Shown: one piece after another, positions 27,925 to 32,782 of the stretch
Layout of the letters: each line of letters starts with the position of its first letter
Position numbering within the stretch: position 1 is the stretch's first letter
Assembly: GCA_045534775.1 (NCBI GenBank)
Contig: JAZSKI010000049.1
Coordinates: forward strand, 9,254 to 73,253
Reading direction: 5' to 3'
DNA length: 64,000 bases
Source: Clostridia bacterium
Lineage (GTDB): Bacteria; Bacillota; Clostridia; RUG12999
Position numbers and translations under genes: made by a program
The notes under the pieces: generated by a model
What the model saw: the letters and a program-made list of their open reading frames with translations, nothing else
Database searches by the model: none
What the model was told of the DNA's origin: nothing

Positions 27925-28122
27925 TTAGATAACTATCTCGGGCTGGTCTTTTGATGTTTCAACAGCACCGTTAATAAGTACAAAATCCGGATTTGTCTTT
28001 ACTACCGGCATTTCAGGCTCTGTTGCCGCGCCTCTCCATTAAGATGCCTCCTCGCTTTGAGGGTCAGAAACAACCGGAATCACAAAATCGCCGTTTTCTC
28101 TGCATTTAAGAATACGTTTCAT
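27925..28122 (-). other. two tandem in-frame mini-ORFs (27 aa + 28 aa) separated by TAA, upstream of rqcH
   Basis: MKRILKCRENGDFVIPVVSDPQSEEAS, then TAA, then 9 codons, then MPVVKTNPDFVLINGAVETSKDQPEIVI. Both share a PVV / DFV(I/L) motif. A sigma-A promoter lies immediately upstream. Confidence 0.25.
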
Positions 28123-28152
28123 TTATGCCATCTCGAAAATAATAATATTTAT

Positions 28153-28181
28153 TATATGATTTTGTAAAGTTAGGGACAAAA
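28153..28181 (-). promoter_or_regulatory. sigma-A promoter TTGTCC-17-TATAAT (minus strand) upstream of the mini-ORFs and rqcH
   Basis: The reverse complement reads TTGTCCctaactttacaaaatcaTATAAT. Confidence 0.4.
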
Positions 28182-28195
28182 TTTTTTGATCCTTT

Positions 28196-28324
28196 TAAAG
28201 GCTTCCCCTCGAGGGGAAGCTGTCACGAAGTGACTGATGAGGTGTAGCTTGCAAGCAATAGTTGTTTCATTTTCACCTCATCCGAGTTGCTTCGCAACCC
28301 ACCTTCCCCTCAAGGGGAAGGCTT
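28196..28324. repeat. symmetric array of five inverted repeats (two near-identical 20-bp GC-rich palindromes flanking three nested hairpins)
   Basis: A=GCTTCCCCTCGAGGGGAAGC (28200-28219) and A'=CCTTCCCCTCAAGGGGAAGG (28301-28320). B=gtcacgaagtgac (28221-28233) and B'=gttgcttcgcaac (28285-28297). C=gatgaggtg (28235-28243) pairs with C'=cacctcatc (28273-28281) around a 29-nt centre. Confidence 0.5.
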
Positions 28325-28373
28325 TTATCCCTTACATATCAAAGTTTAGAATTCGCGAACGATTTAGATGCCG

Positions 28374-28814
28374 TCAAAAATGTGCCTCATAATAATAAAA
28401 GTTATCTCTGATTTTTTCTGTGTAATATCTGTTATACTGATAATCAGTTGAATATCCTTCCCCATCTTTTTTCAGTAAATCCGTATCACAATACATTGTT
28501 CCGCACCAAATTGCCTTTGGCAAATTGTCTTCCGTATAATAGAAACCATAATCATGTGATGATGGAGCAATACCAAAGCCTCCACAATAAAAATCAATTC
28601 CCTCTTCTGCAATGTCAACAGACTCAATTCTGCTTAAATTCAAAGAATCGGAGAAATCTTGTTCAACAACATCAGAAAGTAATAGTTCATAATTTTCATT
28701 CACAAGTATAAAAATTTCTTCTTTTGCATCTTTATCAAAAAAGACTTTTTTAAATAAGAATGTAATGACTATGACTAAAAGTATTGATAATATAATTTTA
28801 ATTGGTTTTTTCAT
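28374..28814 (-). CDS. hypothetical membrane-anchored (signal-anchor) protein with Tyr/Asn-rich C-terminus
   Basis: 146 aa. N-terminal TM MKKPIKIILSILLVIVITFLF. C-terminus ...YSTDYQYNRYYTEKIRDNFYYYEAHF. Its start abuts the stop of the upstream four-helix-bundle gene. Confidence 0.55.
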   Translation of the reverse strand: MKKPIKIILSILLVIVITFLFKKVFFDKDAKEEIFILVNENYELLLSDVVEQDFSDSLNLSRIESVDIAEEGIDFYCGGFGIAPSSHDYGFYYTEDNLPKAIWCGTMYCDTDLLKKDGEGYSTDYQYNRYYTEKIRDNFYYYEAHF

Positions 28815-32493: not shown

Positions 32494-32602
32494 ATTTGTA
32501 TATTTACCTGAAATTATACATAATAAAACCCGCAATGCCGTAAAATGAGTTCACCAAAACCTGCCTCAGCAGGTGGGTATTTCCTGATTGCTTTATAAGT
32601 CC

Positions 32603-32632
32603 CCTGGCGTATCCGAAGATACGGGGGCATTT
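32603..32632 (-). other. stable stem-loop with UUCG tetraloop (minus-strand RNA) within a structured intergenic region
   Basis: Minus strand reads gCCCCCGUAUC-UUCG-GAUACGccaGGGG. A further hairpin CCUGC-ugag-GCAGG flanks it. Confidence 0.3.
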
Positions 32633-32782
32633 ACGCCACATTCAGAGAGCCAATTCCCTTATAAAAAATGTTGGTTTAGGTAATACTGTATTCACGAACA
32701 TTGCAGGCAATTTAAACTGCTCTATCAATACTTATTGTATCATATTCCGAAGAAAATATCAATAGTTTCGCAATAAAAATTT

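Follow-up and report, generated by a model that had tools for sequence, protein, structure and literature searches.

Dispersed palindromic repeats in Firmicutes are, to our knowledge, poorly characterised. The closest analogue of the repeat family described here is the REP/REPIN-RAYT system, together with the BIMEs, although three of its defining features fail. Both consist of inverted pairs of short GC-rich palindromes that can form a long hairpin, occur as dispersed intergenic copies without target duplication, use two alternating arm types (compare the Y and Z REPs), and are associated with a small gene flanked by repeats. The gene linked to the present family encodes a DUF559 PD-(D/E)xK nuclease, however, whereas the REP-linked gene encodes a Y1 (HUH) transposase. 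REP palindromes carry a conserved GTAG or CGTC tetranucleotide as their head (PMC3733652), whereas the arms of this family begin with WWW-G-S-CTTCCCC and have neither head. Furthermore, the arms are built from three modules (P, H and S), with S doubling as a Shine-Dalgarno sequence, and the hosts are mainly Clostridia instead of Proteobacteria.

Free-standing homing endonuclease genes provide a second comparison, since the Vsr/DUF559 clade includes a homing endonuclease, cf. the Vsr-fold enzyme I-Bth0305I (PMC3424549; PMC3239194). Here, a small ORF of this clade is embedded in a conserved sequence of which ORF-less versions occur as well. As for a homing cassette, a gene-bearing and a gene-less element occur between similar flanks (88-89% identical; the relation is mosaic and the genomes are not closely related). 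In contrast to homing endonuclease genes, the landing pad would be a multi-copy dispersed repeat and not a single host gene or intron, and cleavage is only putative. The Correia elements of Neisseria, which are MITEs, are also similar in size (about 130-250 bp), in having terminal inverted repeats, and in carrying promoter- and terminator-like sequences that can affect neighbouring genes. Unlike Correia-type MITEs, the present family lacks a target-site duplication and a related DDE transposase, and has hairpins within each arm.

DUF559 itself is found very commonly, even in E. coli (YcjD), and is a domain of unknown function. At the ycjD locus of E. coli K-12 (NC_000913.3, 1351040-1351830), an upstream 14-bp hairpin hides a ATGAGGTG box, which is shared with the family, and the start codon GTG. 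On the downstream side, the 3' part of a DUF559 gene is present as a duplicated remnant, together with a GC-rich repeat of which E. coli genomes contain a median of 16 copies. This repeat is probably boxC, to judge by the size and copy number given in PMC2267715. It resembles the family in being multi-copy and GC-rich and in having a pyrimidine/purine hairpin followed by a mirrored purine box, but it has no H hairpin and a different arrangement, and the likeness comes from this one locus alone. In the literature we found no earlier account of the palindrome described below or of such DUF559-linked repeats.

The locus studied here lies in a 64,000-nt stretch of clostridial DNA, which we call the window. 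Its type-A arm starts with P, a perfect 20-nt palindrome (GCTTCCCCTCGAGGGGAAGC, 28201-28220) with a pyrimidine-rich 5' half, a purine-rich 3' half and a core that is invariant across copies. P is followed by the H hairpin GTCACgaaGTGAC (28222-28234, plus strand, GTCAC-GAA-GTGAC), which has its C-GAA-G triloop on the strand that reads from the outside in, and, after T28235, by the S box GATGAGGTG (28236-28244), which pairs with 28274-28282. Beyond the 29-nt centre (28245-28273; minus strand AAA-ATG-AAACAACTATT-GCTTGCAAGC-TA), the type-B arm follows in mirrored order. Its S box CACCTCATC (28274-28282) reads GATGAGGTG on the minus strand, where it is Shine-Dalgarno-like and lies 3 nt upstream of a residual ATG. 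The type-B H hairpin GTTGCttcGCAAC (28286-28298, minus strand GTTGC-GAA-GCAAC) again shows a C-GAA-G triloop when read outside-in, and the P' hairpin CCTTCCCCTCAAGGGGAAGG (28302-28321) has C..G as its stem-base pair versus G..C in the type-A arm. P and P' are spaced 81 nt apart, the 9-bp stem GATGAGGTG/CACCTCATC encloses 29 nt, and the arms form a 26-nt terminal inverted repeat with 88% complementarity.

The original prediction, made from the sequence of this locus, had described a five-hairpin array, and every hairpin was confirmed where it had been placed. The palindrome pattern occurs four times in the window (two sites, both strands) against 0.05 expected from shuffles, a number reached by 0 of 100 shuffles; for the 9-bp stem pattern 0.00 occurrences are expected in the window. 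A 146-nt stretch covering the array folds to -69.1 kcal/mol on the plus strand (z -8.6) and to -67.7 kcal/mol on the minus strand (z -6.8), with 0 of 200 shuffles as good in either case. From these shuffles and z-scores it is clear that the array exceeds chance by far. Elsewhere in the 64,000-nt window there is no second copy or further arm-like structure.

Three options had been offered for the array, a structured ncRNA, a MITE/REP-like element and a recombination site, and this interpretation is partly supported. Additional copies were found by scanning one genome per species with the pattern TTCCCCTNNAGGGGAA, 72-102 nt, TTCCCCTNNAGGGGAA, which returned at least 120 loci. The MITE/REP-like option is supported by many copies in many genomes: genomes carry several copies, the flanks are unrelated among copies of one genome, and many copies are located at contig ends, as would be expected of repeats, which break assemblies. 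Hosts among the matches listed are mostly rumen and gut Clostridia MAGs (Oscillospiraceae, Acutalibacteraceae, Ruminococcaceae, 'Eubacterium'), and a single Selenomonas ruminantium MAG has at least six copies. Three loci were found in the isolate Bifidobacterium vansinderenii Tam10B (L009, L015, L066). Occurrence in an actinobacterial isolate and in a bin labelled Bacteroidaceae (L047) indicates horizontal spread, or mis-binning in the case of L047. The copies at L015, L066 and L047 are canonical, while L009 has a variant S box. A plasmid collection gave zero matches and a phage collection merely five partial ones, on unannotated gut contigs; with just eight matches in a scan of viral contigs, the family is not mainly phage-borne. 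No direct repeat indicative of a target-site duplication rose above expectation in 94 copies (k=3-5, offsets 0-4). Within 3 kb of the 120 listed copies no transposase recurs, and neither does an invertase or recombinase near the listed copies.

The 93 copies in the listed loci that show the full module order, together with the window copy, give 94 elements of the form WWW-G-S-[P]-T-[H]-[S box]-centre-[S' box]-[H']-[P']-S-C-WWW. P is a 10-bp CTTCCCC/GGGGAAG hairpin, H a hypervariable perfect hairpin and S a 9-10-nt purine-rich box (GATGAGGTG); the invariance of P and S is partly built in, as the search pattern demanded both. The terminal inverted repeat runs outward to WWW-G-S, and the centre is highly variable between copies. 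Type-A arms have the stem-base pair G..C followed by CTG-H-C-T-GATGAGGTG, and type-B arms have C..G followed by GTG or GGG-H-G-GATGAGGTG. In most elements one arm is of type A and the other of type B; those of Selenomonas are B-B. The orientation of the centre relative to the two arm types varies. Other DUF559 clades have the same architecture with other sequences, for example CCTCTCCC/GGGAGAGG with S box GGAGAGGG and CCTCCCTT/AAGGGAGG with S box GGAGGGATT.

The hairpin nature of H is conserved through sequence change. Its 134 distinct sequences have a mean hairpin score of 4.87 versus 2.78±0.09 in shuffles, and in a MAFFT alignment of 46 copies all six pairs of the H1 helix changed on both sides while 92% of the cells remained paired, which 0 of 500 shuffles reached. 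The minimum free energy fold of the window copy is a single long hairpin with arm paired to arm. Because H and H' differ inside one element, the conserved structure consists of five local hairpins and not of this arm-to-arm hairpin (A2 copies). A subclass of H carries tandem G.A mismatches (C-GA-G ... C-GA-G), and type-B arms have G.A beside the closing pair (GGC..GAC).

All ORFs within 3 kb of the 120 listed copies were clustered all-against-all. Leaving aside one 9-locus cluster, the one recurrent immediate neighbour is a DUF559 protein of about 120 aa. This protein matches PF04480 (E 1.9e-30), not Y1_Tnp, and PDB entry 3hrl (E 5e-19), and the nuclease motifs are invariant in alignment A1. 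At L079 and L027 the ORF is positioned exactly between the arms, in the order P-H-GGATGAGGTG, 4-6 nt, ATG to stop codon, a few nt, CACCTCATC-H'-P'. This makes S the Shine-Dalgarno box of the DUF559 gene and puts the complement of S after the stop codon. The SD-like S box lies 3-8 nt upstream of the start codon, and DUF559 is the sole gene found between arms. When arm pairs 100-4000 nt apart were considered, eight of nine were separated by 350-444 nt, and all eight of those enclose DUF559.

Scans of metagenome and viral sequences with the DUF559 alignment gave 91 loci. The gene is present in five of the 120 unbiased listed loci, L121-L211 having been chosen via DUF559. Among 75 DUF559 genes, 64% have flanks connected by an exact inverted repeat of 9 nt or longer, versus 8.6% of 187 control ORFs from the same loci, and for repeats of at least 12 nt the values are 41% and 0%. 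Protein identity is 70% within a P type and 54% between types, a difference reached in 0 of 2000 permutations. To judge from this co-divergence and from the inverted repeats that bracket DUF559 genes, arms and nuclease travel and diverge as one unit. An independent survey of predicted inversion targets, which are genes associated with inverted repeats, reported a 14-fold enrichment of DUF559 genes (PMC9881135), and the arm-gene-arm architecture explains their appearance there.

Half-elements consisting of single arms were also observed, in tandem arrays beside DUF559 genes (L027 5407-5560, L079 3425-3540, L015 5450-5800, L111 2460-2810). At L111, whole elements alternate with a repeated 77-nt spacer. 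The copy at L105 (7780-8000) is apparently nested in an element of another P family: the flanks of this copy, GTCGGCAGCCCCCTCCAA... and ...TTGGAGGGGACTGCCGAC, are mutual inverted repeats.

There is no DUF559 gene within the window; the array is the gene-less form of the DUF559 cassette, a point that the earlier reading had missed. On the minus strand, the direction of the neighbouring genes, the sequence runs through the B arm, GGATGAGGTG, AAA, ATG... and the A arm. The centre holds the beginning of the former nuclease ORF, with its start codon and the codons next to it, and a small palindrome, H3 (28247-28256). In L190, a full-length element, this H3 motif is situated 3' of the stop codon of DUF559. 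Of the two boxes of the former gene, the SD-like proximal S corresponds to 28282-28274 on the minus strand, and the distal S' has its complement at 28236-28244. What is left of the reading frame is a mini-ORF at 28223-28270 (minus strand; MKQLLLASYTSSVTS, then stop), with the codons ATG AAA CAA CTA TTG CTT GCA AGC TAC ACC TCA TCA GTC ACT TCG TGA. The window copy thus keeps an SD box, the ATG, 14 further codons and the 3' hairpin.

A gene-bearing counterpart was found on a viral-catalogue contig (L201/L222), which matches the window on both sides of the element and has a full DUF559 ORF. Window positions 28299-28353 are 89% identical to L201 1920-1975, and 28155-28243 are 88% identical to L201 2346-2433. 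The end of the L201 ORF (..TSSVTS, then stop) runs through S' and H' in the same frame as the C-terminal part of the window mini-ORF, which ends identically. No single neat insertion or deletion separates the two loci; L201 has H, S and the ORF where the window has H, S and H3, a mosaic replacement, and the two genomes are not closely related. The B-arm H and the centre of the window copy resemble a second, gene-less element in L201. This pattern suggests that copies may have exchanged modules at conserved boxes, rather than that the window copy arose by simple deletion.

The element had been taken to be about 130 bp long. That extent holds for the array, but the repeated unit is wider, spanning approximately 28151-28371, which is most of the gap of about 250 nt between the gene for a 146-aa protein (28374-28814) and the first small ORF beyond the array. 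An extra flank of some 45-55 nt on each side is common to the window and to L120, L064, L029, L086, L023, L101 and L201, with different neighbouring genes. Together the two flanks form an outer inverted repeat, TTTTTTGTCCCT-N16/17-TATAAAGAYTGT, in which each side resembles an outward promoter. On the rqcH side of the window, the flank module (28151-28200, minus strand) contains the outer inverted repeat TTTTGTCCCT and the outward promoter-like site, with -35 TTGTCC (28179-28174), a 17-nt spacer and -10 TATAAT (28156-28151) on the minus strand, agreeing with the consensus at 10 of 12 positions and facing a small ORF and rqcH-queA. The module on the other side (28322-28371, minus strand, GGCATCTAAA...AAACTTTGATATGTAAGGGATAAAAGC) is a degenerate partner of the outer inverted repeat and starts 3 nt past the stop codon of the 146-aa gene. 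Additional repeated modules, TGTCGAAAGATGTCGAA and TATACAGTCTTTATA, are found around elements (L201 2430-2470 and 2600-2700; L120 900-960; L023; L101), and L201 also has one copy of the upstream flank module without an adjoining arm. Such extra modules and the arm-less flank copy suggest what may be a mosaic of mobile modules.

The original prediction placed the array at the boundary with rqcH. It is not directly adjacent to this gene, as about 320 nt with two small ORFs and the promoter-like site lie between. These short ORFs, 28039-28122 (MKRILKCRENGDFVIPVVSDPQSEEAS, then stop) and 27925-28011 (MPVVKTNPDFVLINGAVETSKDQPEIVI, then stop), both on the minus strand and in different frames, sit right downstream of the element-borne promoter-like site and may be a disrupted small gene. 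Searches of Pfam and NCBIfam gave no match for either small ORF upstream of rqcH or for the 146-aa protein, which has no counterpart in L222. Exact-protein look-ups of RqcH and of the 146-aa protein matched no contigs, and the nearest RqcH relatives (76% and 63% identical) have only the rqcH-queA synteny in common with the window. Upstream of the element the window also contains a gene of the 23S_rRNA_IVP family (PF05635; 28815-29195, minus strand), which has the same upstream position in L222 (7209-7502, 48% protein identity). The one Rfam match in the window is a 6S/SsrS RNA (32523-32712, minus strand; Rfam RF00013, 94.5 bits, E 1.3e-17, full model covered). As a side effect, the element would supply a structured 3' region to the 146-aa gene, and its flank would offer a putative promoter to the small ORF and rqcH-queA; in this way it probably shapes expression around rqcH.

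We consider it likely, with a probability of about 0.72, that the array in the window is a gene-less copy of a dispersed palindromic cassette family built on a DUF559 endonuclease, which we infer to spread by means of the nuclease. Membership of the family and the link to DUF559 are well supported; the comparisons demonstrate multiple copies, an architecture conserved through compensatory changes, arms and nuclease that diverge together, and a gene-bearing element between window-like flanks. A full-length element consists of two inverted arms around the gene for a DUF559 (Vsr-like PD-(D/E)xK) endonuclease of about 120 aa, and the window copy has lost, or never received, the gene body. The cassette may be a selfish unit, the nuclease of which would recognise folded or cruciform arms. 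Breaks induced by the nuclease would be repaired from other copies, allowing spread and module exchange by homing or gene conversion at the P and S boxes. Such break-repair is proposed because neither a target duplication nor a transposase was found. PD-(D/E)xK nucleases hydrolyse DNA and cannot rejoin it alone, so that they do not have a complete transposition chemistry.

A different reading is that the repeats are maintained by the host as terminators or 3'-end stabilisers of mRNA, as REP/BIME sequences are in enterobacteria, with a merely historical link to the nuclease. We regard this as unlikely, even though the locations of the copies agree with it: 91 of 94 are intergenic (contexts convergent 17, divergent 6, tandem 48), and many lie 4-35 nt past a stop codon, with a preference for 3' sides of genes. 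Moreover, the flanks are A-rich on their outer side, hence a T run follows the distal P hairpin, and in the window P' (28302-28321) is flagged as terminator-like on the plus strand, where CTTTTAT directly follows it. However, transcription arriving from the 146-aa gene proceeds on the minus strand, where the distal hairpin is followed by just CCUUUAAAAGG (CCTTTAAAAGG). H hairpins with GNA loops, S/S' boxes and a nuclease gene would all be superfluous in a terminator, and purifying selection that removes insertions from promoters would lead one to expect the 3' preference just as much. A compound bidirectional terminator, the fallback explanation in the original prediction, is refuted as the origin of the array, though copies do prefer the 3' sides of genes.

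Somewhat less probable still is that the arms are RNA-level regulators of DUF559, with P-H-SD in the 5' UTR and anti-SD-H'-P' in the 3' UTR forming a long-range clamp that silences a toxic nuclease, so that gene-less copies are immobile decayed remnants. The position of the SD-like S box 3-8 nt upstream of the start codon fits such a clamp, as does S' being its exact complement, and pairing of S with S' could act in the mRNA by clamping the SD box. In E. coli, a local hairpin at ycjD (CACCTCATTCTGAC...GTCAGAATGAGGTG) likewise covers the SD box and start codon. Against this, decayed remnants should not outnumber genes, recur in one genome at unrelated loci, or stay intact. The loops of H are also difficult to reconcile with RNA function. 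When read outside-in they have the form C-GNA-G in both arms (CGAAG 46, CGCAG 22, CGTAG 11 and CGGAG 6 of 188 arms), and the complementary form CTNCG is absent from the outside-in reading of these 188 arms. The signature is therefore on the top strand at one end of an element and on the bottom strand at the other. Internal G.T pairs, the counterpart of G.U in RNA, are nearly absent from the H stems, with one among 134 distinct stems; the counts of G.T and A.C, 1 and 1, do not tell the strands apart. In DNA, a GNA triloop with a closing C-G pair is the classic example of a very stable mini-hairpin. Three features speak against one functional transcript: the loop signature, the near-absence of G.T, and copies that lie either way round with respect to the genes beside them.

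The same observations bear on the possibility that the array encodes an independent structured small RNA or acts as a cis-regulatory RNA, which we consider very improbable. In favour of it, the fold z-scores are strong on both strands, and the promoter-like site and the terminator-like hairpin could bracket a plus-strand transcript of about 160 nt. Against it, the element is nearly symmetric, its stems are perfect Watson-Crick helices and its centre is highly variable. A covariance-model search with Rfam detected nothing in the region at gathering thresholds or even at E<=10. The structured ncRNA option thus finds no support in Rfam, in the single G.T pair among 134 H stems, or in the loop signature on opposite strands. 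Two specific candidates were rejected: a hammerhead ribozyme, of which CTGATGAG (28234-28241) is reminiscent but which would require GAAA and a stem III context that are missing and which has no Rfam match, and a CRISPR repeat, suggested by the best sub-threshold Rfam match (CRISPR-DR57, 18.8 bits versus a threshold of 39) in a region without an array.

There is similarly little chance that a DDE transposase with the same terminal inverted repeats mobilises the family in trans, as it would a classical MITE; the 26-nt repeat with 88% complementarity, the small size, the multiple copies and the frequent location at contig ends would suit a MITE, but no target-site duplication appeared at any offset or length tested, no transposase recurs near the copies, and DUF559 is the sole gene found enclosed. 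It is highly unlikely, finally, that the centre or the gene is flipped by means of the inverted arms, which would make the array an invertible switch or a site of site-specific recombination: the centre varies in orientation relative to the arm types and DUF559 is enriched among predicted programmed inversions, but no invertase or recombinase recurs nearby, and one DUF559 locus sampled eight times (L174, L176, L181, L183, L186, L187, L192, L193) has a uniform orientation with respect to its flanks.

Within the reading of a nuclease-based palindromic cassette, the covariation between S and P deserves attention. Across families the S box mirrors, and does not complement, the purine half of the P stem, in a register that runs from stem base to loop. 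The match is 8/8 for GGGAGAGG with GGAGAGGG, 9/9 for AGGAGAAGG with GGATGAGGT, 8/9 for AGGGGAAGG with GGATGAGGT, and 8/8 for AAGGGAGG with GGAGGGAT when T is counted as equal to A. Examples are 28211-28220 with 28235-28244 in the window, and L180, L155, L027 and L210. A change of the loop-proximal pair from A to G is accompanied by a change of the aligned S position from T to G, and type-A arms, with their inverted stem-base pair, have T at the aligned S position where type-B arms have G. In permutation tests, 0 of 20000 permutations equalled the observed match with free offset and 0 of 20000 in strict register, whereas the same-polarity control was at background level; the families in these tests are not independent, and in type-B arms the parse used for the strict register placed H 2 nt off. 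As a lead only, the mirror covariation could follow the pairing rules of an antiparallel purine-motif triplex (G.G-C, A.A-T, T.A-T), in which H would be the connector.

The loop signature and the mirror covariation, two otherwise unexplained signals, would point to folded single-stranded DNA. In the fold envisaged, the outside-in strand of an arm would form a hairpin, a GNA mini-hairpin and an intramolecular purine-motif triple helix, with S in the groove of P. Tentatively, and with more doubt than confidence, one may picture DUF559 nucleases as defining a new class of small selfish elements, comparable to REP/RAYT except that they would rely on a Vsr-fold hydrolase, whose arms would fold as ssDNA with an S-P triplex recognised by the nuclease and whose gene-less copies would serve as substrates or landing pads.

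The palindromic repeat family is widespread in gut and rumen bacteria and apparently undescribed. Its identification reveals a repeat that breaks MAG assemblies of gut and rumen Clostridia, and the link to the nuclease suggests a function for DUF559 that can be tested, namely to serve a selfish palindromic cassette as its nuclease. If the ssDNA-fold reading is true, the same logic may also explain the E. coli boxC repeats beside ycjD, and if the mirror covariation reflects a natural DNA triplex recognised by a protein, it would add to the few cases in which a triplex has a function.
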